Shown: in pieces, positions 28,886-59,519 of the stretch | Numbering within the stretch: the stretch's first letter is position 1 | Layout of the letters: every line of letters starts with the position of its first letter | From: Bacteroidota bacterium | GTDB lineage: Bacteria; Bacteroidota; Rhodothermia; Rhodothermales; Rubricoccaceae | Length of the DNA: 64,000 nucleotides | Direction: 5' to 3' | Assembly (NCBI GenBank): GCA_039024395.1 | Contig: JBCCQJ010000001.1 | Coordinates: forward strand, 3,288 to 67,287 | Translations under genes and position numbers: made by a program | Notes under the pieces: generated by a model | What the model saw: the letters and a program-made list of their open reading frames with translations, nothing else | What the model was told of the DNA's origin: nothing | Databases searched by the model: none

Positions 28886-29412
28886 TGCGCCCCCTCGCCA
28901 TGCGCGCCCTCGCTCTCGGTCTCGTTCTGCTCGCCGTGCCCGCGCTCGCGCAAGCCCCCCTCACCGAGCACACGCTCGCCCGCACCGACTCGGTCTCCCC
29001 TCCGGCCACCCTCGACGACGTGGCGTGGCTCGTCGGCTCCTGGCACGGGCCGGGCCTCGGGGGCACGTCCGACGAGGTCTGGCTACCGCCGGTCGGCGGC
29101 GCGATGCCCGGCATGTACCGCCTCGTGCAGGAGGGCCAGCCGGTGTTCTACGAGATCTGGGCGATCCGCGAGGTGGGCGGGTCGCTCGTGCTCGACCTGA
29201 AGCACTTCGACCCCGACCTGACGAGCTGGGAGGACCGCGACGAGAACACGACGTTCGAGCTCGTGCGGGTGGGGGGCCAGACGGCCTGGTTCGACGGGCT
29301 CACCTACCACCTCGCGGACCCGGATACGCTGCAGATCTGGGTGGCCCTTCGCGAGGGCGGCGCGGTCACCGAGGCGAGCCTCACCCTCCGCCGTCGGCCC
29401 GTGGCGCCCTGA
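28885..29412 (+). CDS. secreted small protein (DUF6265-like, from memory)
   Basis: Signal MRPLAMRALALGLVLLAVPALAQ. WLVGSWHG motif. The ATG overlaps the VOC stop (GTGATG). Its last ~46 codons are duplicated at 59380-59519. Confidence 0.7.
   Translation: MRPLAMRALALGLVLLAVPALAQAPLTEHTLARTDSVSPPATLDDVAWLVGSWHGPGLGGTSDEVWLPPVGGAMPGMYRLVQEGQPVFYEIWAIREVGGSLVLDLKHFDPDLTSWEDRDENTTFELVRVGGQTAWFDGLTYHLADPDTLQIWVALREGGAVTEASLTLRRRPVAP
29254..29393 (+). repeat. left copy of the 140-nt direct repeat bracketing the alginate locus
   Basis: Hand alignment to 59380-59519. The 113-nt core (29281-29393) has 2 mismatches. The 27-nt upstream part has 4 mismatches. Confidence 0.85.
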
Positions 29413-29538
29413 TCGGTTGGCGGCTGTAGTCTCCAGAAGCGAATGTCCTGGTAGCGATATCAGAGTGTGACCACCTCGCTCGTAGCCGGGCGGATGCGCC
29501 CTTCAAGCCGCAACTCGGGCACCATCTCAAGGGCTCGC

Positions 29539-29952
29539 TCATGCGCCGATGGACCCAGACGCAGTGTCCTCGGCATCGATCTCCTCGTGATCGTACCCGT
29601 CCGAGTTGGCTGGCGGCGAGATCACGACACCTTCGTCCGAGAACAGCATCAGCGTAGGCCATGCGCCGGCGGAGGATCCCCCAGCTTGATGACACTTGGA
29701 AGAGGTTGACGTCTGCGCTGCCTGGCGCGCGAGCCGCTGGCCGGAGACGTAGCCAACTTTCCGAGCGAGCATCGGGTCTCGCCCGCGTGAGAGACTGAGC
29801 TGACGGTCACCTCCCAAACGCCTCAGATCGTCGACCGTCATGAGATCGCGGCCCAACTCCGAGGCGGAGCGGCCTACCGAGTAACCGGAAGATCCGCGAG
29901 ATTGAGTGCGTGGTCGGCGAGGCTGACGAGGACCCCCAACTTCCCGGACCTC
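29539..29952 (-). pseudogene. relic resembling the C-terminus of a VirD4/TraG-type conjugative coupling protein
   Basis: Open frame reads ...GSSGYSVGRSASELGRDLMTVDDLRRLGGDRQLSLSRGRDPMLARKVGYVSG... followed by an acidic tail. It matches the recalled pattern (S.S...R.L.T.DE.RRL..D..L.....P....K..YY). There is no N-terminal part. Confidence 0.3.
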
Positions 29953-30082
29953 GGGCTGCTACGTCACGCAAGCAAGCCCGATGCAGTGGGAGAACGTCAC
30001 GCTCTGCGGGGCTCACAACGTCTGGACTGAGCTCGTACGGGCGCGACCAGGCCGAGCGCGCCGGCGGTGAGGAAGCGGCGAC

Positions 30083-30217
30083 GAGAGGGCATGGGGGTGG
30101 GGAAAAGGAATGGGGGGAGGGGGGAGAGCGGAGGGAGTGGGGAGAAAGGGGGGAGGAGGAGAAAGAGGTCTTTCCATTCCCTCCTTTCTCCCCATTCCTC
30201 CCACTCTCCCCCTTCTC
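30083..30217. repeat. homopurine tract followed by its inverted homopyrimidine copy (36-bp imperfect inverted repeat 30121-30156 / 30176-30211)
   Basis: 30083-30168 is almost all G/A (GGGG runs). 30169-30217 contains no G. About 29 of 36 arm positions match. Lies directly 3' of the kdgK stop on the minus strand, so it may act as a terminator. Confidence 0.6.
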
Positions 30218-30221
30218 AGAC

Positions 30222-31301
30222 TCAGCGTTCGACGCGCCCCGAGCCGGAGCCGCCGGCCAGCGTCTCGACCTCCCCCGCCGTCGTCAGGTTCAGGTCCCCC
30301 GGGATGGTCTGCTTGAGCGCGCTCGCGGCCACGGCGAAGTTCAGCGCCGCCTCGGCGTCGGCCTTCGTCAGCAGCCCGTGGATGAGGCCGGCCGCGAAGC
30401 TGTCGCCCCCGCCCACGCGGTCCACCAGACGCACGTCGTAGACCCGGCTACGGACCGCCTCGGCGAGCGGCTGCGCCGCGCCTGCGCCCCCGAGCAGCAT
30501 CGCGCTCCAGCCGTTGTCGCTCGCGCTGTGCGACTCGCGCAGCGTGATCGCGACCGCCGCGAAGCCGAAGTCGGCCTGCAGCCTCTCGGCCAGCCGCGCG
30601 TAGCCGTCGACGTCGAGCGCGCCCGCCTCGGCGGCGGCGGCGCCCGAGCCCTGGGTGCGCACCCCGAGCGAGCGGTCGGCGTCCTCCTCGTTGGCGATGC
30701 ACACGTCGACGTGCTCCATGAGCGGCCGCATCACCGCCTGCGCCTCGGCGGGGGTCCAGAGCTTCGAGCGGAAGTTGAGGTCGCACGAGACGGTCGCGCC
30801 GGCGGCCTTGGCGGCCCGGCACGCCGCCTCGACGGCCGCCCGCGGCTTCGGCCCCAGCGCCGGCGTGATGCCGGTCCAGTGGAACCAGTCGGCGCCGCTC
30901 GCCTCGGCGCCGCCCGCCTCGGTGGCGAAGGCGGCCTCCCAGTCGACCTCTGCGGCGTCCATCTGGCTCACCGCCGAGTGCGCCCGGTCGTAGACCACCG
31001 TCGACGGCCGCTGGCTGGCGCCGGTCTCGAGGAAGTAGATCCCCACCCGCTCGCCGCCGCGCACGACGAAGCGCGTGTCGACGCCGTACTGCCGCAGCCG
31101 GTTGACCGCCGCCTGCCCGATGGCGTGCGTGGGCAGCTTGCACACGAAGCGGGCGTCGTGGCCGAAGTGGGCCAGCGACACGGCCACGTTGGCCTCGCCG
31201 CCGCCGAACGTCGCGTCGAAGGCGTGGGCCTGGGCGAAGCGCTGGAAGCCCGGCGTCGAGAGCCGGAGCATGATCTCGCCGAAGGTGACGACGGTGGGCA
31301 T
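30222..31301 (-). CDS. kdgK: 2-dehydro-3-deoxygluconokinase (PfkB family)
   Basis: MPTVVTFGEIMLRLSTPGFQRF..., GGGEANVAVSLAHFG, VGGGDSFAAGLIHGLL. Start trimmed to the ATG at 31301. Confidence 0.85.
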   Translation of the reverse strand: MPTVVTFGEIMLRLSTPGFQRFAQAHAFDATFGGGEANVAVSLAHFGHDARFVCKLPTHAIGQAAVNRLRQYGVDTRFVVRGGERVGIYFLETGASQRPSTVVYDRAHSAVSQMDAAEVDWEAAFATEAGGAEASGADWFHWTGITPALGPKPRAAVEAACRAAKAAGATVSCDLNFRSKLWTPAEAQAVMRPLMEHVDVCIANEEDADRSLGVRTQGSGAAAAEAGALDVDGYARLAERLQADFGFAAVAITLRESHSASDNGWSAMLLGGAGAAQPLAEAVRSRVYDVRLVDRVGGGDSFAAGLIHGLLTKADAEAALNFAVAASALKQTIPGDLNLTTAGEVETLAGGSGSGRVER

Positions 31302-31352
31302 GGAGGGAATGGGAAGAGAGGAGGAAATGGGGGGAGTGGGGAGAATGGGGGG
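31302..31352. repeat. homopurine tract (C/T-rich leader of kdgK on the mRNA strand)
   Basis: GGAGGGAATGGGAAGAGAGGAGGAAATGGGGGGAGTGGGGAGAATGGGGGG. Shares the 14-mer GGGAGTGGGGAGAA with 30133-30146. Confidence 0.6.
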
Positions 31353-31409
31353 CGAGTCGTGCGAGACCTCAGGCTCCTTCATTCGTGCACGCCCCGGTTC
31401 CGGGTCTAG

Positions 31410-31585
31410 TACTGCGACCAGCCCACGTTGTCATCCTGAGGAGCCTCGCGACGAAGGATCTCAGCGCAACGTGTCGGCCGTCGCAACCGGCGGCGACGGC
31501 TTCGGCCGACGGCGCCCGGATCCTTCACTGCGTTGGCTGCGCCGTCGCTGCGCGGTCAGGATGACAGAGTGCATTGGTCGGGGTG
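31410..31585. mobile_element. MITE-like element with ~30-bp imperfect terminal inverted repeats, bounded by CTAG
   Basis: Left end ...CGACCAGCCCACGTTGTCATCCTGA matches the reverse complement of the right end ...CGACCAATGCACTCTGTCATCCTGA. CTAG at 31406-31409 and 31586-31589. No ORF. Confidence 0.55.
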
Positions 31586-31589
31586 CTAG

Positions 31590-31794
31590 AGCTTGTCATG
31601 AACTGGACCGCCCAAAACAGAGCGGAATCGGCCGTCGGCTGTTCCCCTCCCTTCCACCGAGTCATCCCGGACTCCGATCCGGGATCCATGCAGCGTCCGA
31701 GCGAGGTGGAGAGGCCGTATGGATTCCCGCCTGCGCGGGAATGACCGTGGTTTTGAAGGGTGTGGCTCCGCGTCCATCGAGTCCATGACAAGCT
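31590..31794. mobile_element. MITE-like element with a perfect 12-bp TIR (GAGCTTGTCATG, counting the flanking G/C), TA/CTAG bounded
   Basis: 5' ctaGAGCTTGTCATGAACTGG ... CCATGACAAGCTCtag 3'. Internal palindromes (CCCGGACTCCGATCCGGG, CCCGCCTGCGCGGG). Confidence 0.6.
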
Positions 31795-31798
31795 CTAG

Positions 31799-31906
31799 AG
31801 TGGTTCGTGCTGAGGTGCGGCCCGTGCCTCTCGCTGGAACCGGTCACGGCGTTCAGAGAAAGGCATGTCTGACCTACTGATGTACTGACTCACCGCCCCG
31901 CTGACC
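31799..31906 (-). repeat. 108-bp repeat family, copy 2
   Basis: Aligns with 430-538 and 52681-52788. Its right-hand CTAG (31907-31910) contains the TAG stop of eda. Confidence 0.6.
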
Positions 31907-32581
31907 CTAGGCGGCGTCGACGGCCTGGCGGAGGCGGCGGGCGTTGGCGGTCAGCCGGCCCCAGTCGCGCGCGGCGACCGCGTCGCGCTCGACGAGCGCC
32001 GAGCCGGCCCCGACGGCCACGGCGCCCGCGCGCAGCCACTCGGTCGCGTTGTCGAGCGAGACGCCGCCGGTGGGCATCAGCTTCAGGTGCGGCATCGGCG
32101 CGAGGACGCCTCGGATGAAGCCGGGGCCGAGCGAGCCGGCCGGGAACACCTTGACCACGTCGGCGCCCGCCTCGTGGGCGGCCAGGATCTCGGTGGGCGT
32201 GAAGCAGCCCGGCATGGCGGCCGCGTCGAGGGCGTGGGCGGCCGCGATCACCTCGCGGCGGAAGACGGGGCTGACGACGTAGCGGGCGCCGGCCTCGATG
32301 GCGGCGCGCGCCGTCGCGGCGTCGGTGACGGAGCCTGCGCCGACGAGGACGCTGCCGCGCATGGCCTCGGTGACGGCCCGGATGCCGTCGATGGCGCCCG
32401 GGACGGTCATGGTGACCTCGAAGCAGACGACGCCGCCGACCTGGAGGGCCTGGGCGACCTCGACGAGGCGGTCGGGGGCGTCGAGGCGGACGACGGCGAC
32501 GGCGCGGTCGCGCTCGATCCAGCGGACGACGTCGGCGCGGGTGTCGGCGGTGGGCTTGTCGAGGACGGGGTGGAAGGGCAT
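31907..32581 (-). CDS. eda: KDPG / 4-hydroxy-2-oxoglutarate aldolase
   Basis: VVCFEVTMTVPGA, GAGSVTD, MPGCFTPTEI, VKVFPA, MPTGGVS motifs. Confidence 0.88.
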   Translation of the reverse strand: MPFHPVLDKPTADTRADVVRWIERDRAVAVVRLDAPDRLVEVAQALQVGGVVCFEVTMTVPGAIDGIRAVTEAMRGSVLVGAGSVTDAATARAAIEAGARYVVSPVFRREVIAAAHALDAAAMPGCFTPTEILAAHEAGADVVKVFPAGSLGPGFIRGVLAPMPHLKLMPTGGVSLDNATEWLRAGAVAVGAGSALVERDAVAARDWGRLTANARRLRQAVDAA

Positions 32582-32680
32582 GGCAGGGCCGCCTCGGGGC
32601 GGAGTTGGCGGGCGGCGCGGAAAAAACAGACCGGGCGAGGGCTGGCTAGCCCCCGCCCGGAAGAACAGATTCTGTCGAGG

Positions 32681-34252
32681 CTAGCGGACGATGGACAGGG
32701 TCCGTGCCGCGACCACCGAGCCCGCGCGCAGCCGGACGTGGTAGAGGCCGGCAGCAAGGCCCGCGCCGTCCCACGTCAGCTCCTGCGCGCCAGCCGCAAG
32801 CGTGCCGTCGGCGAGCGTCGCCACGCGGCGGCCCATCACGTCGAACACCTCGACCGTGACGTCAGCCGGAGCGTCGAGAGCGAACGAGATGGTCGCCGAC
32901 CCCGAGGTGGGGTTGGGCGAGGCCCCGAGGCGGAGCGCCTCGACCTCCGGGCCGCGCGACACCGAAGTCCCGAAGGCACCGGTCGTCCCGATAGCCGCGT
33001 AGTACACGTCACCGACGACGTCGGTGCCGACCACCTCGAAGTCGAACTCCCAACCGGAGAGGTCGCTAGACTGGATTGCCGTCGGGGGCGACGCGAGCGA
33101 CGTCAGGTGGGCTGTCGTGCCATCCGTGTCGAAGCCGCCTGCGTTCGTCCACGTTGTGAAGTCGTCGATCGAGCTGGCAACCACGAAGTCTGTACTCCCT
33201 TCCGGCACCTCGTCGTCGTCGCCGTACGAGATCTCGATCCGGTCGATGTTGATCGCGTCCGACGAGTCGAAGAAGTACCACTCGAAGGCGTAGTACCGGA
33301 CCGGCGAGACGTCCGTGAGGCCGCCCTCGAACGTGCTGCTGCCGCTGTCAGCGTCGCCGCTGATCGCGCGGACACCGAAGAACTGGTCGTCCGACGGCCG
33401 CTCGGTGACGTAGACCGTGACGGGGCGGTATCCGTCCTCATCGCCAACGGGGTAGAACCGGTTGTTCTGCGAGGAGACTGTGCCCTTCGGAAGGCCACGC
33501 GCCAGCTCGCCGATGACGTAGGAGGCCGGCGACCCGCCGACGACGACCGAGCTGTTGTTCGAGATCAGCGTGAACCGGAAGTCGCCCGTGTCGAGATAGC
33601 CACTCGTGAGTGTGAACGTCGCGCGGCTGTTGTTGTCCATCGTCGCGTCGTTGAGGAGCGTGACCGTAGCGCCGTTCTCCTTCGCGATCTCGGTGCGGAA
33701 GAGCTGGTTGTCGTTGTTGTCGTAGTCACCGAGGTGGAGCGTCGCGTCCTCGTCGCCAGCGAAGATGAGGTCGATGAAGGCGGCCGAGGGCGGATCCGTC
33801 GAAGTCGCCCCGCGGCGCATGTCGAACGTGCCGCCAGAGGAGTTGTCGATGCTCCCGTGGATAGTCAGGCGGTGGTAGATCTCGCCAAACCCGACGCTGG
33901 TGTCTTCGTCTTGGTTCGAGAGTGGACGGAACTCGCCGTCGGCGTCGATGGTGAGGTCGCCGAAGATGGTGATCCCCTTCGCCACGTTGTCCACGCCCCC
34001 GCGGTCCATGCGGAGCCAACCGTCAGCATCGCCCTCTCCGCGGATGGTGACGTTGTTGGCGACGGCGTCATCCACATCGATCGTGACGGTGGAGTCGATC
34101 ACGACATCGTCGGTGGCCGTCGGGACGGCCCCGCCTGACCACGTGGCCGGGTCGCTCCAATTGCCGCTGAGGGCAACGGTGATCTGCGCCTGCGCGGTCA
34201 GCGGGACGAGCCCGAGGGCGAGGGCAGCGAGGAGGGGGTAGAAAGGTCGCAT
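32681..34252 (-). CDS. T9SS-secreted protein of unknown function (beta-helix-like N-terminal region, C-terminal sorting domain)
   Basis: Signal MRPFYPLLAALALGLVPLTAQAQ. GNWSDPATWSGGAVPTATDDVVID. CTD LGASPNPTSGSATISFAL...VEVFDVMGRRVATL...GLYHVRLRAG...LSIVR. Confidence 0.75.
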   Translation of the reverse strand: MRPFYPLLAALALGLVPLTAQAQITVALSGNWSDPATWSGGAVPTATDDVVIDSTVTIDVDDAVANNVTIRGEGDADGWLRMDRGGVDNVAKGITIFGDLTIDADGEFRPLSNQDEDTSVGFGEIYHRLTIHGSIDNSSGGTFDMRRGATSTDPPSAAFIDLIFAGDEDATLHLGDYDNNDNQLFRTEIAKENGATVTLLNDATMDNNSRATFTLTSGYLDTGDFRFTLISNNSSVVVGGSPASYVIGELARGLPKGTVSSQNNRFYPVGDEDGYRPVTVYVTERPSDDQFFGVRAISGDADSGSSTFEGGLTDVSPVRYYAFEWYFFDSSDAINIDRIEISYGDDDEVPEGSTDFVVASSIDDFTTWTNAGGFDTDGTTAHLTSLASPPTAIQSSDLSGWEFDFEVVGTDVVGDVYYAAIGTTGAFGTSVSRGPEVEALRLGASPNPTSGSATISFALDAPADVTVEVFDVMGRRVATLADGTLAAGAQELTWDGAGLAAGLYHVRLRAGSVVAARTLSIVR

Positions 34253-34285
34253 ATCATCGGTGGGAGGAGGAAGGAAGCAGAGGGC

Positions 34286-34312
34286 CTGTAACATGTAACA
34301 TGTCATACAGGA
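34286..34312 (-). promoter_or_regulatory. site 1 of the conserved PUL motif (with a 7-bp internal duplication), 34 nt upstream of the start codon
   Basis: Plus strand CCTGTAACATGTAACATGTCATACAGG. The outer arms CCTGTA/TACAGG are palindromic. Confidence 0.5.
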
Positions 34313-34399
34313 CAATTGAGTATAGCGGCTGGAAACGGGACTCGCAAGCGCTTCCAGGAACGAGCGGCCTATTTGCAGCTCGGCCCTTCGGGGAGTGCC

Positions 34400-35134
34400 T
34401 CAGGCCGCTTCGGCCTGCCTTGCCAGCGTCGTCTCGACATGCTCGCGCGCGACCTCCAGGTGCTCCCGCATCTCTGCCTCGGCTCGGCCGGCGTCACGGG
34501 CGAGGATGGCCTCGAGGATTCGGGTGTGCCAGTGGACCGCCGCCTCGTGGGCGTCGCCGACCACCTCGTACACGTTCGCCTTGATCGCCGGCATCAGCTT
34601 CTGGATCGGGCGGACGAACAGGGGCAGGAGCGGGTTGTGTGCCGCCTCGGCGATGAGAAGGTGGAACGTCATGTCGAGCTGCGAGAGCCGCTCCTGATCG
34701 CCCTTGACCGTCGCCAGGTCCGCCACGTTCGCTCTCAGCTTCTCGGCGTCGGAGGCCGCGTGGTGGACCGCCGCGGCGGCAGCGATCGGCGGCTCGATCA
34801 GTTGGCGCGCCCCCACGACGTGGAGCGCATGATCCGGCCCGGTGTGCATGTGGAGGTACAGCTCCATCGGCGTCGCCACCGAGTCGGCCGAGAGCCGCTG
34901 CACAAAGATGCCCCTCCCCTTCTCGATACGAAGGAGCCCACGCGCCGAGAGCACCCGGAGGGCCTCACGCATGACCGTCCGGCTCACCCCGAACTGCTCA
35001 CAGAGCTGCATCTCCGACGGAAGCTTGTCGCCCTGCCCGAAGTCACCCGCGCGGATGGCGTCCTCGATGGCCGTCTCGACGGTCTGGCTGAGCAACTCAG
35101 ACTTTCCGACGGCCTTGAATCGGGTCTTGGGCAT
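34400..35134 (-). CDS. GntR family (FadR subfamily) transcriptional regulator
   Basis: wHTH LPSEMQLCEQFGVSRTVMREALRVLSARGLLRIEKGRGIFV plus an FCD-like helical C-terminus. Start trimmed to the ATG at 35134. Confidence 0.88.
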   Translation of the reverse strand: MPKTRFKAVGKSELLSQTVETAIEDAIRAGDFGQGDKLPSEMQLCEQFGVSRTVMREALRVLSARGLLRIEKGRGIFVQRLSADSVATPMELYLHMHTGPDHALHVVGARQLIEPPIAAAAAVHHAASDAEKLRANVADLATVKGDQERLSQLDMTFHLLIAEAAHNPLLPLFVRPIQKLMPAIKANVYEVVGDAHEAAVHWHTRILEAILARDAGRAEAEMREHLEVAREHVETTLARQAEAA

Positions 35135-35178
35135 GGGGGCAACGGGGCGTGCCCCGCAACATACGCGAACGGGGGCAT

Positions 35179-36474
35179 CTAAAGCCCAAACGCCTCGGGG
35201 AGCGCCGTCGTGAGCGCCGGGAACAGCACGACGACGGCGAGCGCGATCAGCATCGCGATGTAGAGCGGCAGAAGCGGCCGCGCGATTCGCGAGACCGGCA
35301 CCCCGGCCACGCCGCAGCCCGCGAACAGGACCGTCCCCACGGGCGGCGTGCACAGCCCGATGCACAGGTTGAGCACCATCAGGATCCCGAAGTGCAGCGG
35401 GTCGATGCCCAGGCTCACCGCGACCGGCAGGAAGATGGGCGTGAAGATCAGGATGGCCGGCGTCATATCCATGAACGTCCCCACAGCCAGCAGCACGAGA
35501 TTGATGAGCAGCAGGAGCACGACCGGGTTGTCGGACAGGCCGACGAGCCCTTCGGCGACGCCCTGCGGGATCCGGTCAAACGAGAGCACCCACGAGAGCG
35601 CCATCGACGTCGCCACCAGGAGCATCACCACGGCCGTCGTCACGACCGACTGGAGGATGACGCCCTGGAGGTCGCGCACCGAGACCGACCGGTAGATCCC
35701 CATCGAGAGCACGAGCGCGTACATCACCGCGATCGCTGCCGCCTCGGTGGCGGTGAAGATGCCAGCCACGATCCCCCCGATCACGACGATGATGAGCCCG
35801 AGGCTGGGGAGCGCGTCGAGGAACCGGCGGCCCACCTCGGCAAGCGGGACGCGCGCGTCGGTGCCGTACCCGTTCCGCTTGGCGATCACGCCGGCTACGA
35901 GCATCAGCGACAGCCCGAGGATGAGGCCCGGGATGTAGCCGGCCACGAACAGGGCCGCCACGCTCACGCCGCCCGACGCGAGCGAGTACACGATGAGCAC
36001 GTTCGAGGGCGGGATGATGAGGCCTGTCGTCGCCGCCGACACGTTGACGGCCGCGCTGAAGCCCTCGTCGTAGCCGGCCTCGGTCATCTTCGGGTGCATC
36101 ACGCCGCCGATGGCCGCGGCGGCCGCGATCGCCGAGCCCGAGATGGCCCCGAACAGCATCGAGGCGATGATGTTGACGAACGCGAGGCCGCCGGGCAGCG
36201 AGCCCACGAGCGACCGCGCGAACGCGATCAGCCGCTGCGCGATGCCGCCGCGCGCCATCAGGTTGCCGGCCAGGATGAAGAACGGGATCGCGAGCAGCGT
36301 GAAGCTGTCGAGCCCACCGGCCAGCCGCTGCGCGACGGTGCTCACCGCCGGACCTGGATCCACGACGGTGAGCAGCGACGCCAGCGTGGCCGTCCCGATG
36401 CAGAACGCGACCGGCACGTCGAGCGCCAGCAGGACGAGGAAGACGACGATGAGGACGGTGACGGCGAGGGCCAT
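35179..36474 (-). CDS. dctM: TRAP transporter large permease
   Basis: 431 aa, polytopic. LLAIPFFILAGNLM, MLFGAISGSAIA motifs. Confidence 0.9.
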   Translation of the reverse strand: MALAVTVLIVVFLVLLALDVPVAFCIGTATLASLLTVVDPGPAVSTVAQRLAGGLDSFTLLAIPFFILAGNLMARGGIAQRLIAFARSLVGSLPGGLAFVNIIASMLFGAISGSAIAAAAAIGGVMHPKMTEAGYDEGFSAAVNVSAATTGLIIPPSNVLIVYSLASGGVSVAALFVAGYIPGLILGLSLMLVAGVIAKRNGYGTDARVPLAEVGRRFLDALPSLGLIIVVIGGIVAGIFTATEAAAIAVMYALVLSMGIYRSVSVRDLQGVILQSVVTTAVVMLLVATSMALSWVLSFDRIPQGVAEGLVGLSDNPVVLLLLINLVLLAVGTFMDMTPAILIFTPIFLPVAVSLGIDPLHFGILMVLNLCIGLCTPPVGTVLFAGCGVAGVPVSRIARPLLPLYIAMLIALAVVVLFPALTTALPEAFGL

Positions 36475-36481
36475 GCAGATC

Positions 36482-37015
36482 TCAGGCAGACGGGGGAGGG
36501 GGCGCCGACGGGGCCTCGGGAACGGCGGCCTGACCGCGCGCCGTCTCGACCGCCCCCACGACGGCGTACCACACCATGAGCAGGCCCGAGATCGGGAGCA
36601 CGAGGTAGACGTACCCCACCGGCACCTGGAACGCCGCCGACCGCTGGCCCAGCTCGAACGTCACGTTGACCAGGATGCCCCCGCCGACGACGAGCGTCAC
36701 GATGGCGAACAGCGCCACGACGGCGTAGCTCGCGATGCGCGCCCGCTTTCGAGCCTCCGGAGAGAGCCGCGTCACGACCACGTCGATCCCCAGGTGGGCG
36801 CGCTGTCGGAGCGCGTAGGCCGCCCCGAGGAGGGAGATCCACAGGAGCAGGTACGTCGCCAGCTCCTCGGTGTACGAGCTGGGCTCGTTGAGCAGGAAGC
36901 GCGTTGCCACCTGCCACGTCACCGTGAGCACCATCACGACGGTGAGGCCGACGAGGACCGCGGCGAGGACGCGGTCGAGGGCGGCCGTGAAGCCGCGGGC
37001 GGGGGCGTCCGTCAT
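36482..37015 (-). CDS. dctQ: TRAP transporter small permease
   Basis: 177 aa, 4 TM. WQVATRFLLNEPSSYTEELATYLLLW. Confidence 0.85.
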   Translation of the reverse strand: MTDAPARGFTAALDRVLAAVLVGLTVVMVLTVTWQVATRFLLNEPSSYTEELATYLLLWISLLGAAYALRQRAHLGIDVVVTRLSPEARKRARIASYAVVALFAIVTLVVGGGILVNVTFELGQRSAAFQVPVGYVYLVLPISGLLMVWYAVVGAVETARGQAAVPEAPSAPPPPSA

Positions 37016-40682: not shown

Positions 40683-40745
40683 GGAAGCAGAGCCGCCGCG
40701 CCGCCCGGCCCCGAGGCGGGGCAGCACGGCCGAAGATCGGAAGCC

Positions 40746-41114: not shown

Positions 41115-41118
41115 GGGC

Positions 41119-46663: not shown

Positions 46664-46664
46664 C

Positions 46665-46696: not shown

Positions 46697-46702
46697 CGTT
46701 TC

Positions 46703-49399: not shown

Positions 49400-49529
49400 C
49401 CGGGGGCGGCGCCGGACAACCCGGCCTCGCGGATCACGTGGGGAAGGACGGCCCCGCCGAGGCCCTCTGGCTCGCCCCCAGCGGCCGGTCGTAGCACCCA
49501 GCAGGAAACGTCGGCGAGGGAGGCGCGCG

Positions 49530-52663: not shown

Positions 52664-52680
52664 CGAGGGGGACGGATTAG

Positions 52681-52788
52681 AGTGGTTTACGCTGAGGTGC
52701 GGTACACGCATCTCGCCGGAACCGGTCGCTACGTTCGGGCAACGGCGTTTCTGACCCACGGACGTACTGAACCACGACTCCACGGACT
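52681..52788 (-). repeat. 108-bp repeat family, copy 3, filling an intra-operon spacer
   Basis: Aligns with 430-538 and 31799-31906. Its right-hand CTAG (52789-52792) contains the TAG stop of the PorV-like gene. The left boundary is TTAG. Confidence 0.6.
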
Positions 52789-53808
52789 CTAGGGGAGGGT
52801 CGCGCCGATCGTGAGGCGGTGGACCGCGCCGAGGAACTCGCCCATGTCCCCGTAGCTGTAGTCGATCCCGAAGCGGGCGCCGCTGAGGTCCGCGTTGAGG
52901 CCGGCCCCCAGCGTGATCCCCTCGGTGTCGTAGTTCATCTTGTAGCCGGCCCGGAGCGCGATCAGTTCGGCGAAGGCGTACTCCGCCCCGAACTGCATCT
53001 GCTGGTCGTAGTCGTTGGGCTGGTGGAGGTCGTAGGCGACCGTCAGCCGGTTCTGCGCGTTCTGCTGCACGATCCCGTTCGGCCCCACGAGATCGCCCGA
53101 CGCCCCGAGGCGGAACGTCAGCGGGGCCGCGAAGCGCTCCTCGACGAAGGCCACCTCGGGGCCGAAGTTCTGGACCGACATTGCGATGTCGAGCGAGCGG
53201 AACCCGGTCTCGTACTGAATCCCGAAGTCGAACAGGACCGCCCCGGCCGCTGTGTTCACGTCGCCGGCCGCCGGCCCGTCGTAGAGCGACTCGTAGGCGT
53301 ACTTGGCCGTCACGCCTGTCGCGAACCGGTCGGTCAGGCGCCGGGCGTACGAGACGCCGGCCACGAACGCCGTCGGGCCGAACGTGCTGCCGGTCAGGCC
53401 GGGGTTGTACGTCCCGTCGGGGTTGAACCCGAGGTTCTCCGTCCGCGTCTCGGCGATGCTGCCGTAGTCGACGGCCTGGACCTGGAACCCGATCTGGCCG
53501 AGCCCTCTCACCGAGGTGGCGTACCCGGCCGACGAGAGGCGGGTGTCGACGAGGTACGGGATGTGGGTCGCCGTGACGGCGTGGCCGGTCGTGCTGGCGA
53601 GGCCGGCCGGGTTCCAGAACAGGGCCTCGGCCCCCTTCGCCAGCCCGACGTAGGCGTCGCCCATGGCCGTCGCGCGGGCCGTCGGCATCACCTTGAGGAA
53701 CTGGAACGACGTCGTCCCCACCTTCTGAGCCGCCGCGGGCGGGGCCGCGACGAGGAGCGCCAGCGCGGCGATCGCCACGAGCCGGACAGGGTTTCGGGAG
53801 GCGATCAT
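52789..53808 (-). CDS. PorV/PorQ-like T9SS-associated outer-membrane protein
   Basis: VGTTSFQFLKVMPTARATAMGDAYVGLAKGAEALFWNPAGLA is the characteristic PorV/LptO N-terminal signature. 339 aa beta-barrel. Confidence 0.75.
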   Translation of the reverse strand: MIASRNPVRLVAIAALALLVAAPPAAAQKVGTTSFQFLKVMPTARATAMGDAYVGLAKGAEALFWNPAGLASTTGHAVTATHIPYLVDTRLSSAGYATSVRGLGQIGFQVQAVDYGSIAETRTENLGFNPDGTYNPGLTGSTFGPTAFVAGVSYARRLTDRFATGVTAKYAYESLYDGPAAGDVNTAAGAVLFDFGIQYETGFRSLDIAMSVQNFGPEVAFVEERFAAPLTFRLGASGDLVGPNGIVQQNAQNRLTVAYDLHQPNDYDQQMQFGAEYAFAELIALRAGYKMNYDTEGITLGAGLNADLSGARFGIDYSYGDMGEFLGAVHRLTIGATLP

Positions 53809-53812
53809 GACT

Positions 53813-56173
53813 CTAGCGGATGATGACGAACTTGCCTTGCGTCGACTCCCCGTCGGGCGTCGTCACGACGTAGAAGTAGACCCCCGAGGCGAGGCGCTGG
53901 TTGTTCCGCGTCTCCTGGAGGTAGGCCACCGAGTAGGTCGGGCTGTCGTGCTCGATCGTCTCGACGAGCTGGCCCGCAAACGAGTAGATCCGGATCGTGG
54001 CCTGGGCCGGGAGGCCGTAGAACCCCATCCGCAGCGACGACTCGCTCGCGCCCCCAAACCCCGACCCGACCACGAACGGGTTGGGCACCACATGGACGTC
54101 GCCGAGCTGGGCGACGGCCCCGAGCTGGGTCTCGAACGCGGTCACGTTCGTTCGGCCGCTCCGCCCCCCGTTCTCGTCGACCGAGACGACCGAGTAGTAG
54201 AACGTCTCGCCCACGACCGGCTCGGGGTCCGCGACGACGTAGTCGCCGGCCGGCACGAAGCTGTACGTGGCGCCGTCGTGGACGAACGCCGGGTCGCCGG
54301 CCTCGACCGTCGCGAGGGTCTCCCACGGCCCCGCCGGGTGCGTGCTCCGGGCCACCTCGTAGCGGGAGAAGGAGCCGGTGAGGCGCGGCGCGCTGAAGCC
54401 CTCGACCGCGGCCGACCAGTAGATCACGTTCTGGGCCTGGTCGTCGCTGGCCACGTTGAGCGCCGGCGCCGGGACCGGGATCGGGAGCCGGTAGACGCCC
54501 GCCTCGGGGTTCAGCTCGGGGCGGTTGTACGCGGGCGCGGCGAACTCCTCGCCGGTGTAGGCGAAGTAGGCCCGGTCGGCCACCTCGCGGACCGTCACCA
54601 CGTCGGAGTTGACGTAGTCGGGAAGGTCGTACTCCGAGAGGTAGGCACTCCCGTGGCGCTTGATAACCGTCCCCTCGTCCGCACCCGGCCCGTAGGGGAA
54701 GATGCCCGGGAAGACCGGGTTGCCCCCGTAGCGGACAGTGTCGGCGTACGAGGCGAGAGGAAAGAACCCGCGGCTGCCGTCTTCGCCGCAGTCCTCACCG
54801 CACGACCCACCCCAGTCGACGACGTAGTTGTCCTGATCGGGGGTCGTCCGCTCGCCTGGCGGGAGGTAGGCCTGCTCCGGCCGGATGGCCCCGAAGCCGA
54901 TCACCTCGGCCAGCGCGAACCGGGCGGTCTCGCCGATCTCGAGGTCGTACGGCCCGAAGACGGTGATCCGGCCGGTCGCCCACCGCGTCTGGCGGAAGTT
55001 GTAGCGCCCGGCACCCACCCAGTAGTCGAGGAAGTGCTGGTAGGCCGGGTCCTCGATGCCGCCCTCGGGCGGGATCACCGAGCCCTCGCGGAGCGGCGCG
55101 TTCTTGCGCGTGTCCACGCGGAGGTACTGCGTGAGCTTCGAGGCCCGGAGGTTGCTCGTCTCCTGGCGGACGAACCACGGCTGCTTGATCTTGACGCCGC
55201 CGCCATACTCCCCCGTCCACACGATCGCCGAGTCGCTCTGGGTGACGTCGACCAGCGTCCCGCTGTCGATCGTCGAGAGGTGCTCGGTGTCGAAGCGGAG
55301 CATCATGTAGCCCGGCGTGCCTGGGGCGTTGAGGCCGCCGCCGTTCTCGCCCGTCTCGGACCACTCGCGGTAGTAGACCGGGTCCGGCAGGCCCGTCTGG
55401 TGGTAGGTGTAGTTGAGGAACCGGAACGGGTCGAACCGGCCGCGCTGGTCGTTGTCCTGGTACTCGTCGTCGGTCCAGGCGCCGTAGGTCCGGAGGTTGC
55501 CGAAGAGGTTCGGCGCGAGCCCGTACGAGAACGCGATTGTGACGTCGGTGATGGGCTGGTCGGTGTCCGGGATCGTGTCGCCGTCGCGGTCGCCGGTGTA
55601 CTCGAAGGCGTACTCGTAGACGATCAGGTCGTCGTAGTCGGGGTAGCTCCAGGCCCGGCTCGTCCGCGTGACCGTGATGCCGACCGGCGTGGCCCACGAG
55701 GCGACGATGATCTCCTCGGCCTCGTCGGGATCGTAGGCCGGGTTGAGCGTGCCGTCGTCGAGGACGGGGTAGTTCTCGGTCCGCGTGATCGTGAGCGGGA
55801 ACGCCCACCGCCCAACGGTGATGTCCGGCTGCGAGGCCCCCACACCGCCGCTGAGCGCGTGGACGCGGTCGGTCGAGTCGGGGAGCTGGGCCGAGATGTA
55901 GACGCCGCCGCCGTTCGTGTAATGCTTGCCGTCGTAGTTGATGTCGTCGACGGTCACGCGGGAGTTGCCTGGCCACTCCATCATGGGCACCTCGGTGGCG
56001 TTGCCACCACCCCCTTGGTGGTAGGCCCGGCCGATCTCGCCGGTGTTGAAGACGGTCTCGTGGAGCATGCCCCGCGAGTGGATCTCGAACCGCCGCTGCG
56101 CCTCGGCCGGGAGCGCCGCGGCTACCCCGAGGAGGGCGACGAGGCCGGCGCGCATCGTGTGTCGGAGGGTCAT
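53813..56173 (-). CDS. 786-aa surface protein of unknown function with an FN3-like region and a CTD-like C-terminus
   Basis: Signal ...GLVALLGVAAALPAEAQ. C-terminus VVPNPFVVG...ATIRIYSFAGQLVETI...GVYFYVVTTPDGESTQGKFVIIR. 1-nt gap to the TonB receptor stop. Confidence 0.75.
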   Translation of the reverse strand: MTLRHTMRAGLVALLGVAAALPAEAQRRFEIHSRGMLHETVFNTGEIGRAYHQGGGGNATEVPMMEWPGNSRVTVDDINYDGKHYTNGGGVYISAQLPDSTDRVHALSGGVGASQPDITVGRWAFPLTITRTENYPVLDDGTLNPAYDPDEAEEIIVASWATPVGITVTRTSRAWSYPDYDDLIVYEYAFEYTGDRDGDTIPDTDQPITDVTIAFSYGLAPNLFGNLRTYGAWTDDEYQDNDQRGRFDPFRFLNYTYHQTGLPDPVYYREWSETGENGGGLNAPGTPGYMMLRFDTEHLSTIDSGTLVDVTQSDSAIVWTGEYGGGVKIKQPWFVRQETSNLRASKLTQYLRVDTRKNAPLREGSVIPPEGGIEDPAYQHFLDYWVGAGRYNFRQTRWATGRITVFGPYDLEIGETARFALAEVIGFGAIRPEQAYLPPGERTTPDQDNYVVDWGGSCGEDCGEDGSRGFFPLASYADTVRYGGNPVFPGIFPYGPGADEGTVIKRHGSAYLSEYDLPDYVNSDVVTVREVADRAYFAYTGEEFAAPAYNRPELNPEAGVYRLPIPVPAPALNVASDDQAQNVIYWSAAVEGFSAPRLTGSFSRYEVARSTHPAGPWETLATVEAGDPAFVHDGATYSFVPAGDYVVADPEPVVGETFYYSVVSVDENGGRSGRTNVTAFETQLGAVAQLGDVHVVPNPFVVGSGFGGASESSLRMGFYGLPAQATIRIYSFAGQLVETIEHDSPTYSVAYLQETRNNQRLASGVYFYVVTTPDGESTQGKFVIIR

Positions 56174-56174
56174 C

Positions 56175-59048
56175 TTAAAGGTCGACTGCGAGGCCGAGGA
56201 AGAGCGAGCGGGGCGCGTTGTCGTAGATCCGGAAGACCTGGTTGGCCGGCTCGGGGAAGCTGTCGCCGAGGTAGAGCTCGAGCGCCTCGTCGGGGTCGTC
56301 GGTGAACCCGTCCGGCGTGAGGTCTGACGGGTTGACGGCGAAGTCGTAGGCCCGCAGGTTGCGGACGTCGCGGAAGACGCGGTTGTAGTCGTAGACCCGC
56401 TGGTTGAACAGGTTGACGACTTCGAGGAAGAGCGAGCCCTCGGCGCCCGACGCGAGTTGGAACGGGCGCGTCACCTTCAGGCTGGTCTCATACTCCATCG
56501 GCGCGCGGGCGTCGGCGACGAGAACCTCCTGGCCGGCAGCGAATGACGTGTAGGGCCGGCCCGAGCGGACGCGCGTCCGCACTGAGGCGGTCCAGCGCCC
56601 GAGCGGGCGGACGCCGGCCACCTCGGGGCCGAGGTCGCGCGGCGTCGAGGCGGAGAGCTGGGCGATCAGGTTGTGCGTCCGGTCGAAGTCGAGGAGGATG
56701 TCGTTGAGCCCGATCCCGACGCGCTGCTCGTCGATCGTCCCGTCGAGGCCGCGGATGAACTGGGGGGGCGCGTCCTCGGCGCTCGACGTTCTGCCGGTGG
56801 CGACCTCGTAGCGGTAGCGAACCGACCCGCGCACGAGCCCGCGCCGACGCTGAACCGAGACCCGGAAGCCGCGGATGTCGGCGTAGTCGCGGTTGATGTA
56901 GGTCTGGTACGGAATGTCGACGCCCTCGCTGAAGAAGGCGAGCTGGACGAGGTTGCGAACGTCCTTGTAGTAGCCCGAGAGGTCCATCGTGAACCCGAGC
57001 GGGAGCTGCTGCGCCACGCCGACCTCGTACATCCGTGTCTCCTCGGGCTTGAGCTGGGGGTTGCCGAGCTGGATGATGGCGAGGTCGTTCGACCGCTGGA
57101 TCCGGCTCACGAGCGAGCGCTCGAACGGCGGCCGCTGGAGGAACGAGCCGTAGTTGAGGTGGAAGACGGTATTGACCGAGACCGGGAACGAGGCCCCGAG
57201 GCGGGGCTGGAGCCGGGCCACCCACGCGGTGTTGTCGACGAGCGCCAGGTCGGGGTCGCGCTCGGCGTTCTCGCCCACGGCCGGCTGCGTCGGGTCGAAG
57301 CCGGGGTTCGCGTACGGGTTGTACAGGTCCGAGAAGTAGTCCGTGTTGAGGTTGTAGGCGTCGAACCGGAGGCCGAGCCGGGCGATCAGGCCCTCGTACT
57401 CGATCTTGTCCTCGGCGAAAAGCCCGATCTCGAACGGGTACACGCTGAACGCCTCGTCCTGCGCGTCGGACGGGCTCGACAGGTTGAGCCGGTTGTCCAC
57501 GTCGAGGTGGTAGAGCCGCCCCTGGACGCCGACCTTGACGAGGTGGTTGTTCGTGACCTGGTTGTTATACGTCGCGTCGAGGGCGTACGTCGAGGCCTGC
57601 TCGTTGCGGAAGTCGTTCTCGGTGTAGCCGACGCGGAACTGGTCCGGCGTGTTGAAGAAGCGCCACACGCCGAGGTCGCTGGTGTCCTCGCGGAAGCGGG
57701 CCGGATCGAGGATGGTCGCGCCCGTCTCGTAGTCGTTGCGGAGGACGCTCACCGAGACATCGGCGAAGCTGGACGGGTCGAGGACGACAGCCAACCGGGC
57801 TGAGGCGCCGAGCGTGGTCTCGTCGACCTGGGCGAATCCGCGCTCGCGGTCCCAGAGGTACTGCCAGAAGCTGCTCGTGAACTCGAACCCGCGGACCCGG
57901 TTGAAGGCGCCGGCGAGCTGCAACGAGGCGGCATCCGAGAGGGCAACGCGGGCGCTCCCGAGAAGCTGGCGCGTCCGCTCGGGCTCGTTCGTCGGGAGGG
58001 CGTACCACTCGTCGGAGAACCGCCCGCCGATGAAGACACGGACGCGGTCTGAGACCGGCCCGCCGACGGAGAGGTCGAACTGGGTGTCCCACACGTCGTC
58101 GTACTCCGTGTTCAGCTCCTCGCGGGCCTGCGCCCAGACGGCCTGCGCGATCTCAGCGGCCTGGAGGCTGTCCTGGGCTGTGTCGAGGCCGTAGGCGCTG
58201 CAGAAGCTGAGGCCGATCGAGCACGAGAAGAGACCCTCACCGCTGTCGCCGCCCCACTCCTCGACCGTGTCGAAGGCGAGGAGGTACGGGTTGTTGTCGA
58301 GGCTGAAGACACTCCCCCCGAAGTGCTTGTAGCCCGGCGCCCGGACGCGAAGGCTTCCCGACCCCTCCCAGCGGTCGAACCCGCCGGACTGGAGGGCCAT
58401 GTTGATGACGCCACTCTGCGCGTTGCCGTACTGGGACGGGAACCCGCCTGTGATGACCTCGACCTCCTCGAGGGCGCTCGCGATCGGGTCGAACGCGCGG
58501 GCCCCAGTAAACGGGTTGACGATGTTGATCCCGTTGAGGAGATAGAGCTCCTCGCCAGTCCGCCCGCCTCGGAAGTGGCCGTCGGTCGCCTCGACCGTCA
58601 GACCGATCACGTCGGTGAGCGAGTAGACGCCGGGCGCCTCGGCAACCTCGCGGGGCCGGATGATCTCGCTCGACGCCGTGCGCTCGGGCTCGATGTCGGG
58701 CCGCTCGGCCGTCACCACCAGGTCTCCCTCGATCGCGAGGTCCTCGGCAAGGAGAACGAAGTCGACCTCGGTGGTCCGGTCGTTGTTGACCACGACGCCC
58801 TCCTGCACCACGGTCTGGAGGCCGACGAATGCCGCCCGGAGATCGTACGTCCCGGGCGTCACGGTGAGGATGTTGTAGACGCCGTCGACGTCGGTCGAGG
58901 CGCCCTGCGTCGTCCCCACGATGAGCACGTTGGCCCCCGGGATGGGGGCGCCGTCTGCGTCGACGATCGTGCCGGTCAGTTTTCCGGTCTGAGCGTGGGC
59001 TCCGCTGGCGAGCGCGATGGCGAGAGCACCGAGCCAGAGTCGTTGCAT
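56175..59048 (-). CDS. TonB-dependent receptor with an N-terminal CarboxypepD_reg domain (SusC-like; no SusD partner)
   Basis: Signal MQRLWLGALAIALASGAHAQ. GKLTGTIVDADGAPIPGANVLIVGTTQGASTDVDGVY. Plug and barrel. Start trimmed to the ATG at 59048. Confidence 0.88.
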   Translation of the reverse strand: MQRLWLGALAIALASGAHAQTGKLTGTIVDADGAPIPGANVLIVGTTQGASTDVDGVYNILTVTPGTYDLRAAFVGLQTVVQEGVVVNNDRTTEVDFVLLAEDLAIEGDLVVTAERPDIEPERTASSEIIRPREVAEAPGVYSLTDVIGLTVEATDGHFRGGRTGEELYLLNGINIVNPFTGARAFDPIASALEEVEVITGGFPSQYGNAQSGVINMALQSGGFDRWEGSGSLRVRAPGYKHFGGSVFSLDNNPYLLAFDTVEEWGGDSGEGLFSCSIGLSFCSAYGLDTAQDSLQAAEIAQAVWAQAREELNTEYDDVWDTQFDLSVGGPVSDRVRVFIGGRFSDEWYALPTNEPERTRQLLGSARVALSDAASLQLAGAFNRVRGFEFTSSFWQYLWDRERGFAQVDETTLGASARLAVVLDPSSFADVSVSVLRNDYETGATILDPARFREDTSDLGVWRFFNTPDQFRVGYTENDFRNEQASTYALDATYNNQVTNNHLVKVGVQGRLYHLDVDNRLNLSSPSDAQDEAFSVYPFEIGLFAEDKIEYEGLIARLGLRFDAYNLNTDYFSDLYNPYANPGFDPTQPAVGENAERDPDLALVDNTAWVARLQPRLGASFPVSVNTVFHLNYGSFLQRPPFERSLVSRIQRSNDLAIIQLGNPQLKPEETRMYEVGVAQQLPLGFTMDLSGYYKDVRNLVQLAFFSEGVDIPYQTYINRDYADIRGFRVSVQRRRGLVRGSVRYRYEVATGRTSSAEDAPPQFIRGLDGTIDEQRVGIGLNDILLDFDRTHNLIAQLSASTPRDLGPEVAGVRPLGRWTASVRTRVRSGRPYTSFAAGQEVLVADARAPMEYETSLKVTRPFQLASGAEGSLFLEVVNLFNQRVYDYNRVFRDVRNLRAYDFAVNPSDLTPDGFTDDPDEALELYLGDSFPEPANQVFRIYDNAPRSLFLGLAVDL

Positions 59049-59057
59049 GGAGGAGAG

Positions 59058-59069
59058 GGAAGCGCTTCC
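59058..59069. promoter_or_regulatory. perfect 12-bp palindrome GGAAGCGCTTCC in the receptor leader
   Basis: 10 nt upstream of the ATG. Related copies at 44228-44239 and 34344-34355. Confidence 0.4.
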
Positions 59070-59083
59070 GATCCCCGAACGTA

Positions 59084-59108
59084 CCTGTAACATGTCATAC
59101 AAGTCAAG
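59084..59108 (-). promoter_or_regulatory. site 3 of the conserved PUL motif, 36 nt upstream of the receptor start codon
   Basis: CCTGTAACATGTCATACAAGTCAAG (minus strand: CTTGACTTGTATGACATGTTACAGG). Confidence 0.55.
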
Positions 59109-59154
59109 ACAATGCCTTCAACCATGATAGGAGGAGGACCCGGGCGCACGCGGG

Positions 59155-59377
59155 TCAAGTAGCGAATCTCGTGGGTTGGCGAAAAGGGGCATGGAGGGGC
59201 TCCATGTCGAGGTAGCGGCGCTGGCACCCGTCCTCGGAGACTCGCAGCAGCACAGCCGATGCCAGCGTCTCCCCGCTCTGCCCGCTCGGGAATACACCCA
59301 CGACGCGCGTGCGACGCTTGACCTCCCGCATGACCCGCCCGACGAGTCTCTGAAGCACCTCGCGCGAGCCCGTGATG
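59155..59377 (-). pseudogene. IS256-family (mutator-type) transposase relic, C-terminal ~70 aa only
   Basis: ...TGSREVLQRLVGRVMREVKRRTRVVGVFPSGQSGETLASAVLLRVSEDGCQRRYLDMEPL matches the recalled C-terminal pattern (E.LN.EIKRRT.VVGIFPN....RL..AVL.E..E.W...RYL.M). Confidence 0.6.
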
Positions 59378-59379
59378 GC

Positions 59380-59519
59380 TTCGACCTCGTGCGGGTGGAG
59401 GACCGGACGGCCTGGTTCGACGGGCTCACCTACCACCTCGTGGACCCGGATACGCTGCAGATCTGGGTGGCCCTTCGCGAGGGCGGCGCGGTCATCGAGG
59501 CGAGCCTCACCCTCCGCCG
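59380..59519 (+). repeat. right copy of the 140-nt direct repeat (orphan 3' fragment of the 28885..29412 gene family)
   Basis: Translates FDLVRVEDRTAWFDGLTYHLVDPDTLQIWVALREGGAVIEASLTLRR. No 5' part is present. It abuts the IS256 relic. Confidence 0.85.

Follow-up and report, generated by a model that had tools for sequence, protein, structure and literature searches.

A direct repeat of a gene end around an alginate locus in an uncultured Rhodothermales lineage: possible scar of an old insertion

Some integrative and conjugative elements (ICEs) of Bacteroidota carry polysaccharide utilisation loci (PULs), for example the seaweed-glycan loci of gut Bacteroides. Islands in the 3' ends of genes, "grounded" elements and mobile elements with glycan loci are all already known kinds. 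The prophage e14 has icd on one side, reaching into the prophage, and the C-terminal pseudogene icdC on the other (PMC13626634). Here we analyze a 64,000-nt stretch of contig JBCCQJ010000001.1 (assembly GCA_039024395.1; the whole stretch is called the window), in which an alginate/uronate locus lies between two direct copies of the 3' end of a small DUF6265 gene. We give a probability of about 0.45 to the reading that DNA inserted long ago into the 3' end of this gene and left the repeat as its scar. Overall, the repeat described in the initial annotation is confirmed and its interpretation supported in part; we see an old scar at a gene 3' end, left by insertion or rearrangement. The locus would at best be a heavily eroded further case of the known kinds, in an uncultured Rhodothermales lineage. 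The gene and the two repeat copies are the following:

28885..29412, plus strand, intact DUF6265 gene, called D (Pfam DUF6265, 1.3e-35)
29254..29415, plus strand, left repeat copy, the last 52 codons of D plus 3 nt
59380..59541, plus strand, right repeat copy, called D', orphaned 3' end of a DUF6265 gene that stays in frame up to the stop position

The initial annotation had described a 140-nt direct repeat (29254-29393 and 59380-59519), and our recount confirmed its counts exactly: of the 6 mismatches, 4 fall within the first 27 nt and the other 2 within the 113-nt core. A repeat search of the window extends the pair to 162 nt (29254-29415 / 59380-59541), direct and 91% identical. The match reaches 226 bits, compared with a maximum of 35.6 bits in 60 random Markov-1 sequences of 64 kb each. 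No similarity is left in the 60 nt compared upstream of the repeat (21/60 identical) or in the 60 nt compared past 29415 (12/60 identical). The abrupt left edges are real. The decay noted after the repeat needs a refinement: past ...CTCCGCCG the homology of D' runs 7 codons further in frame, with 9 of 22 nt different, up to a mutated stop (59536-59538), which is CGA in place of the TGA of D. The right copy is indeed an orphan 3' fragment. All alginate/uronate genes of the window lie between the two copies as had been claimed, and Pfam finds none in the window flanks. The product of D has 175 aa, or 170 aa if started at the ATG at 28900, and the gene overlaps the stop of the glyoxalase gene upstream. 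A look-up of the exact proteins of this gene and of a 498-aa beta-lactamase ORF of the window gave no record, because other start codons are used in the called genes.

More importantly, the two gene ends differ in an informative way. D ends with CGT CGG CCC GTG GCG CCC TGA (RRRPVAP*, the asterisk denoting the stop), while D' ends with CGC CAG CCG GTC CGG CTC CGA (RRQPVRL, stop mutated). The DUF6265 orthologs of other species end with RRQPVAL*, RRQPVE* or RRQPVAP*; because these C-termini are homologous to both, we consider the ends of D and D' both to be legitimate DUF6265 termini. In the terminal codons D is as distant from D' as from the orthologs of other genera. Over the preceding 140 nt, D and D' are 96% identical, while the orthologs reach 73–77% there. 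D' is identical in all three conspecific genomes, and the three D alleles all end with RRRPVAP*. Given the step from 6/140 to 9/22 differences, a single recent duplication cannot account for both ends. Such a simple duplication of the gene end is ruled out by the last 22 nt, which differ at 9 positions and are yet homologous in frame.

This is the arrangement known from e14 and icd: a different terminal segment closes the intact gene D, and the orphaned native end sits at the far boundary in the same orientation. No chimeric allele, as excision with joining of the two copies would restore, was seen among 107 DUF6265 homologs or the three cluster members. The attL/attR footprint in a gene 3' end, which the initial annotation proposed, is supported in part by this architecture. 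The left edge of D' is, however, a deletion junction, and such a footprint does not foresee a second orphan, X', next to D'. In the insertion reading, whose direction of events we infer, a DNA molecule with a DUF6265-3'-like segment would have recombined with the chromosomal gene, either site-specifically, by an integrase since lost, or by a single homologous (Campbell-type) crossover. The left copy would then supply the final 7 codons, RRRPVAP*, that close the gene, and the other gene end would have been displaced 30.1 kb downstream, where it would decay as the orphan RRQPVRL with its stop changed to CGA. The incoming DNA may have included, or sat in, a conjugative element, of which only the C-terminus of the coupling protein would survive. 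Later deletions would have removed the remaining backbone; one may have fused the coupling-protein gene to a truncated gene with a twin-arginine (Tat) signal, and another may have joined an IS256 copy and the orphan, each at an internal position. The near-identity over 140 nt would come from recency or from gene conversion between the copies.

The left junction runs from the stop of D over a spacer, the C-terminus of a type IV coupling protein (T4CP, minus strand), a Tat-like orphan (minus strand) and a G/A-rich inverted repeat to kdgK:

29413..29538, spacer from the D stop to the T4CP relic stop, 126 nt, GC 62%
29539..29952, minus strand, relic of a T4CP C-terminus of VirD4/TraG type (Pfam T4SS-DNA_transf)
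29997..30092, minus strand, orphan N-terminal fragment with a twin-arginine-like signal, MPSRRRFLTAGALGLVAPVRAQS (six-frame translation)
30107..30215, G/A-rich imperfect inverted repeat downstream of kdgK, 84% complementary

The T4CP relic is genuine and is situated 127 nt inward of the left repeat copy. The resemblance to VirD4/TraG that the initial annotation saw is confirmed by Pfam above the gathering score (21.3 bits against 20.1), by three NCBIfam T4CP models that hit the same stretch, and by phmmer. The reading frame is open for 137 codons, with a homologous core at ~29713-29880. In a phmmer search of 1.8 billion representatives, the best full-length match was a 692-aa protein (E=4.8e-5), to whose residues 588-643 the relic is 48% identical over 56 aa. 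This protein is itself a genuine coupling protein (T4SS-DNA_transf/TraG-D_C, 4e-72); the other phmmer match, P0229, is an ankyrin/STAND protein and was dismissed as spurious. A close intact relative was not found: a word-index search returned the relic alone, on a 913-bp contig, and tblastn against plasmids gave no match. The spacer at 29413-29538 is free of Pfam signal in all frames. The Tat-signal orphan is cut off after ~30 codons and is conserved in the conspecific contig L001. It is probably the stump of a deleted gene and marks a second deletion junction, between the T4CP relic and the alginate locus. L001 ends at the inverted repeat 30107-30215. As a separate observation, G/A-rich low-complexity tracts lie on both sides of kdgK, at 30107-30215 and 31297-31352.

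The right junction consists of three pieces, and a block of three genes follows:

59155..59377, minus strand, relic of an IS256-family transposase, C-terminal ~70 aa, truncated on its 5' side and abutting the right repeat
59601..59810, plus strand, second orphan X', interior piece of a gene of the serine beta-lactamase family, starting at codon ~65 (Pfam 1.2e-15)
59806..59929, patch with a terminator-like hairpin AGCGCTGG...CCAGCGCTTT, 75% identical to 22439-22560
60008-61186, minus strand, beta-lactamase-family gene
61204-61902, minus strand, LytTR response regulator
61890-63608, minus strand, histidine kinase

The IS256 relic, which the initial annotation had placed here, is genuine as well. 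It is weak in Pfam (E=0.01), and by tblastn it is 57% identical to a Thermus transposase (E=2e-14); it matches more than 1000 plasmid records, and the named ones among those listed are IS256-family transposases. Hidden Markov model searches had been suggested for both relics, and of these the T4CP passes its gathering score while IS256 stays weak. The transposase stop lies 45 nt past the promoter/operator of the receptor operon at 59052-59108. At ~59377/59380 the interior of the IS256 gene meets the interior of the DUF6265 gene, and both genes are truncated there. With both partners joined at internal positions, the junction is a deletion scar and neither an insertion sequence (IS) end nor an att boundary. 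We also considered an IS256 composite transposon and rejected it, because only one internally truncated copy is present and a second is missing; the boundaries show no terminal inverted repeats and no 8-9-bp target duplication. ARAGORN found no tRNA target at either junction, and Rfam gave no family at gathering score on the whole window. A 92-nt tRNA-Ala(cgc) that ARAGORN calls at 25023-25114 falls within the 3' end of the abhydrolase gene, and we take it for a probable false positive of GC-rich coding sequence.

X' carries a W->stop mutation and a frameshift and is separated from D' by a 57-nt spacer. Its intact parent gene X begins on the same strand 332 nt past the window end, as seen in the conspecific contig L006 (positions 1-258, corresponding to 64332-64589 on the window scale). 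Over the 66 comparable nt X' and X are 89% identical. The overall layout is therefore D / T4CP relic, alginate locus, IS256 relic / D'-X' / beta-lactamase, LytTR, kinase / X. It falls into two neighboring blocks, one of 30.1 kb and one of 4.9 kb, and in each case the gene at the outer edge recurs as a direct partial copy at the other end. This arrangement would fit two successive RecA-dependent single crossovers of Campbell type with circular DNA and no integrase: one circle with a DUF6265 3' fragment would have brought 29.4-59.4 kb, another with the 5' part of X the beta-lactamase/LytTR/kinase block, and the orphans D' and X' would have been left back to back, meeting at 59380-59810. Homologous exchange is active here, as a strain-diverged stretch with edges at ~29.05 and ~48.8 kb shows. 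This explanation needs, however, an extra deletion of codons 1-64 of X', a plain crossover of diverged copies alone yields no 140-nt near-identical core, and X can be compared over 66 nt only, because the window and the contigs end. We think it quite improbable.

Right of X' an intergenic repeat of ~150 nt (22439-22600 / 59806-59960, 75% identical) shares the motifs CGGCCGATGAGCCGAGC and CCGATGAGCGCTGGTC and has a T-run after the hairpin. Three consecutive pieces of 120-220 nt thus each match a different locus within 40 kb, and one may ask whether 59380-59930 is filler DNA, made of short segments that were copied from DUF6265, X and the 22.4-kb terminator region into a rearrangement junction during break repair or by template switching. 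The identities between piece and source vary widely, though (96%, 89% and 75%), and the last 7 codons of D' are diverged yet homologous, unlike a fresh copy. We give very little credence to this origin.

For the insertion reading, the DUF6265 site in relatives is of direct interest. The next DUF6265 orthologs are 65–81% identical, and the collections hold no relative between 81% and 98% identity and hence no informative empty site. Our scan for an empty site covered five loci from genome contigs (three useful relatives) and four from metagenome contigs (one useful); viral contigs gave only 28%-identical matches or none. In the relatives the upstream order LysR, abhydrolase, sigma-like, glyoxalase, DUF6265 is conserved, and downstream follow an Rce1-like gene, a 435-aa unknown, DUF5916 and beta-lactamases. 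L002, L004, L009 and L012 keep the left flank and DUF6265, and the alginate locus is absent there. Within 10 kb of the relatives' DUF6265 no second DUF6265 fragment was found. A true empty site, as the initial annotation asked for, was not found in these relatives: the left-flank order occurs there without the locus, but the right flank does not follow DUF6265. The sole link to this flank is an X ortholog in L002, 7.5 kb downstream of DUF6265 on the opposite strand, which makes the genes right of D' a plausible native DUF6265 neighborhood. The initial annotation had also named what would speak against it: relatives with the locus at this position but free of repeats, a full-length paralog truncated by IS256, or relics that hit no model. 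None of these was encountered. Independent of this question, the stretch 25257-27562 (a 419-aa unknown and an AraC-type gene) is absent from L004.

A number of observations weigh against the insertion reading and against an alginate cargo. As the initial annotation stated, the window has no integrase: the Pfam-scanned open reading frames (ORFs) contain no integrase/recombinase, relaxase, mating-pore or excisionase domains, and six-frame scans of the junctions (29400-30230 and 59040-60010) gave no match to mobile-element domains. From an ICE conjugation module, only the ~137-codon C-terminal relic of the coupling protein is present in the window. The length of the repeat and its divergence pattern are atypical for an att core, and the change from ~4% divergence over 140 nt to ~40% over 22 nt needs an added conversion or homologous-recombination step. 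Because the left edge of D' is a deletion junction, the repeat length of 140 nt is accidental and silent about an att site; the right copy may once have been longer, possibly a whole second DUF6265 gene. D' is followed by the second orphan X' and not by intact native sequence, the parent X being situated 4.9 kb to the right, and a single att event does not predict such an orphan pair. Finally, no conspecific empty site was found in the searched collections, where three of three genomes share the layout, and the sequence right of 59519 follows DUF6265 in no relative examined, the right flank not being collinear.

Several of these points would fit an explanation without any causal link between repeat and locus. 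Here the locus would be long-resident, and D' would be a second DUF6265 copy, a paralog or one borne by a mobile element, that lay upstream of the receptor operon, was truncated by an IS256-linked deletion and was subject to gene conversion over ~140 nt; the element of the T4CP relic would have decayed, unrelated, in the same plastic region. The D'/IS256 junction, internal to both genes, is just such a deletion scar, and the divergence step fits a conversion tract that ends near 59519. Furthermore, the locus is native in composition and the T4CP relic looks foreign, the neighborhood is rich in fragments and insertions (X', the Tat-signal orphan, an IS110-like insertion in X in the third strain), and the left flank is itself rearranged relative to L004. 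On the other hand, no relative has a second DUF6265 paralog in its 20-kb locus, and relatives with the same left-flank order have no alginate locus downstream of DUF6265. It would also become a coincidence that direct copies exactly bracket all alginate genes, with mobile relics at both inner edges. We judge this explanation to be rather unlikely.

Composition and age add further weight against the insertion reading. The GC content of 29.4-59.4 kb is 70.2% and that of the flanks 69.6%; in tetranucleotide usage the interior correlates with the flanks at 0.979, and the values inside the flanks and inside the locus are 0.987 and 0.975. The comparison suggested by the initial annotation hence gives no sign of foreign origin, the stretch being indistinguishable from its flanks, and we rejected composition as such a sign. 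The alginate genes have a GC content at third codon positions (GC3) of mostly 0.92-0.99, about 0.95, which is strongly native codon usage. DUF6265 has a GC3 of 0.94, the IS256 relic of 0.79 and the T4CP relic of 0.67; because of this difference the T4CP relic and the locus are probably of different origins. The native composition suggests that the locus came from the same lineage or was already resident.

The locus also holds two copies of a species-specific 125-nt structured repeat (31792-31915 and 52674-52797), with a third outside at 423-547, all on the minus strand. The copies begin at or just after the stop of minus-strand genes (M23 peptidase, eda and PorV-like), have terminal inverted ends CTAGAGT...ACTCTAG and are predicted to fold into two hairpins. 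None was found in the orthologous loci of relatives, and Rfam gave no match; the repeat could be an element resembling a miniature inverted-repeat transposable element, or a 3'-untranslated-region RNA. Since they are only 75–82% alike, the copies must be old, and we infer that the locus has resided in the lineage far longer than the ~4% divergence of the gene ends suggests. With such a long residence, the copies of the gene end would have been homogenized later, or the locus would have moved within the lineage.

The receptor operon (receptor, 786-aa protein, PorV-like protein, 468-aa protein and PL6) is present in six other species, namely Rubrivirga marina, Rubrivirga sp. IMCC45206 and four lineages from metagenome or metagenome-assembled genome (MAG) contigs, one of them a Tara contig set. 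The proteins are 76–89% identical to those of the window and show about the same distance to every related species in the sample, which is the pattern that vertical descent would give. No mobile-element genes were found near the operon in the six species. The upstream neighbor differs in each of the six, so that on this timescale either the locus moves or its surroundings do. With native GC3, old internal repeats and an operon that occurs in six species without mobile genes, the claim of a decayed conjugative island that delivered the PUL is the weakest part of the proposal. That a conjugative element delivered the alginate locus as its cargo we hold to be unlikely. The case is weak because no recombinase or further conjugation genes were found in the window, because locus and T4CP relic differ in composition, because the locus holds native repeats, because the receptor operon shows the same divergence to every related species, and because the X'/X pair is not predicted by a single att event.

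The comparison of strains adds another layer. Three MAGs of the species show the same layout wherever contigs cover the junctions (left: L001; right: L006 and L018). L001 and L006 stem from GCA_038747655.1 and L018 from GCA_039045855.1, and the third MAG is probably the source of the window itself; we compared 18900-30145 with L001 and 43814-64000 with L006 and L018. The flanks and the right third of the locus are near-clonal, with 6 differences in 18900-28900 and 4 in 48814-64000 (~0.03-0.06%). Between them the strains diverge by 1.7% in the coding locus at 43.8-48.8 kb and by ~8% at 29.67-30.15 kb, the region of the T4CP relic. This mosaic implies an imported stretch with its left edge at ~29.05 kb, inside DUF6265, and its right edge at ~48.8 kb, of which 29.05-30.1 and 43.8-48.8 kb are readable, 30.1-43.8 kb being on no recovered contig. 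We conclude that homologous allelic exchange has taken place across the region. The T4CP relic is kept in the conspecific MAG at 5–8% divergence, and the comparison shows that its DNA evolves neutrally and that its junction with D predates the strain divergence, as far as the left-side part covered by the conspecific contig is concerned. In L018 (positions 1-140), X is interrupted after codon ~44 by DNA whose reverse strand encodes ...MRKLLHAVHGMLRHGADFDGERF, which appears to resemble the C-terminus of an IS110-family transposase. This suggests strain-specific insertion-sequence activity at the X locus.

In a further, more novel reading, ongoing recombination would keep the two DUF6265 ends ~96% identical, so that they serve as an integrase-free handle for excision and re-insertion. 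RecA would excise the 30-kb locus as a loop, which could pass to another strain and integrate there through one crossover, and the 4.9-kb block bracketed by beta-lactamase fragments would do likewise. Metabolic loci of Rhodothermales would then be exchanged as serial "Campbell cassettes". We regard such a handle as very unlikely.

The alginate/uronate locus itself spans 30222..59048 and, by Pfam and NCBIfam, has all genes except two on the minus strand:

30222-31382, minus strand, kdgK
31907-32581, minus strand, eda
32681-34315, minus strand, protein with a type IX secretion system (T9SS) tail
34400-35365, minus strand, GntR/FCD regulator
35179-36474, minus strand, DctM
36482-37015, minus strand, DctQ
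37012-38100, minus strand, DctP
38070-40727, minus strand, heparinase-like protein
40746-41327, minus strand, cupin
about 41119-41900, minus strand, SDR
41928-44189, minus strand, PL17-like lyase
44342-45949, plus strand, PL6 lyase
45953-46663, plus strand, 236-aa ORF
46703-49399, minus strand, PL6 lyase
49530-51743, minus strand, PL6 lyase
51257-52663, minus strand, 468-aa protein
52789-53808, minus strand, PorV-like protein
53813-56173, minus strand, 786-aa T9SS-tailed protein
56175-59048, minus strand, TonB-dependent receptor
59052..59108, minus strand, promoter/operator of the receptor operon, CTTGACTTGTATGACATGTTACAGGTACGTT...GGAAGCGCTTCC

Beside the receptor no SusD domain was found. The neighbor is the 786-aa protein, whose only known domain is a T9SS sorting tail and which is 88–89% conserved across all related loci. 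As this neighbor is not SusD-like, we describe the locus as non-canonical, SusD-less and functionally PUL-like. The promoter/operator at 59052-59108 is the last sequence in common with the loci of the relatives and is conserved in at least six species upstream of the receptor gene (L016-L025). It consists of a TTGAC -35-like box, the near-palindrome TTGTATGACATGTTACA and the palindrome GGAAGCGCTTCC, and a second, inverted copy lies at 44223-44281 in the divergent intergenic region between PL17 and PL6. The conserved element is probably the operator of the GntR/FCD regulator of the locus. In L018, the equivalent of 59046-59125 shows 12 clustered substitutions in the promoter/operator, mostly transversions, and the surrounding 10 kb are identical; this could be an assembly artifact or a replaced operator. 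Elsewhere in the window, three tandem paralogous genes for MacB/FtsX-type permeases of ~800-940 aa each (3465-11235) are the source of the repeat families D1, D4 and D14.

If the insertion reading is true, the locus shows how alginate genes came into a gene 3' end in an uncultured marine Rhodothermales lineage near Rubrivirga, and how thoroughly a mobile backbone can be erased while cargo and att-like repeat survive. This bears on the spread of algal-glycan catabolism among marine Bacteroidota-like bacteria. A caution for the calling of islands also follows, in that the repeat boundaries are here set by later deletions and not by the recombination site.

Of the known systems, e14 and phage 21 in icd of E. 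coli are matched in three respects. Element-side sequence replaces the last ~50 codons so that the gene stays intact, the displaced C-terminal fragment is a pseudogene at the far end in direct orientation, and the two ends differ at few residues (PMC13626634). In contrast to our window, which has no recombinase, e14 has retained its integrase and still excises; where e14 holds prophage genes, the window has a metabolic locus between the two copies, and the orphan here is truncated by an IS256-linked deletion. With the PUL-carrying ICEs, the locus shares a glycan locus within direct repeats, a conjugation gene at one edge and its absence at the homologous site in relatives. It differs from them in that only ~60 homologous residues of one conjugation protein are left, of the VirD4/TraG (PF02534) type and with a composition unlike that of the locus, and in that integrase, relaxase and tra operon are missing from the window; moreover, the locus is compositionally native and found in relatives without element genes. 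"Grounded" prophages and decayed islands resemble it in that cargo and att-like repeats are kept while the backbone is lost to deletion and insertion sequences, the difference being that the decay is here too complete to establish the type of element.

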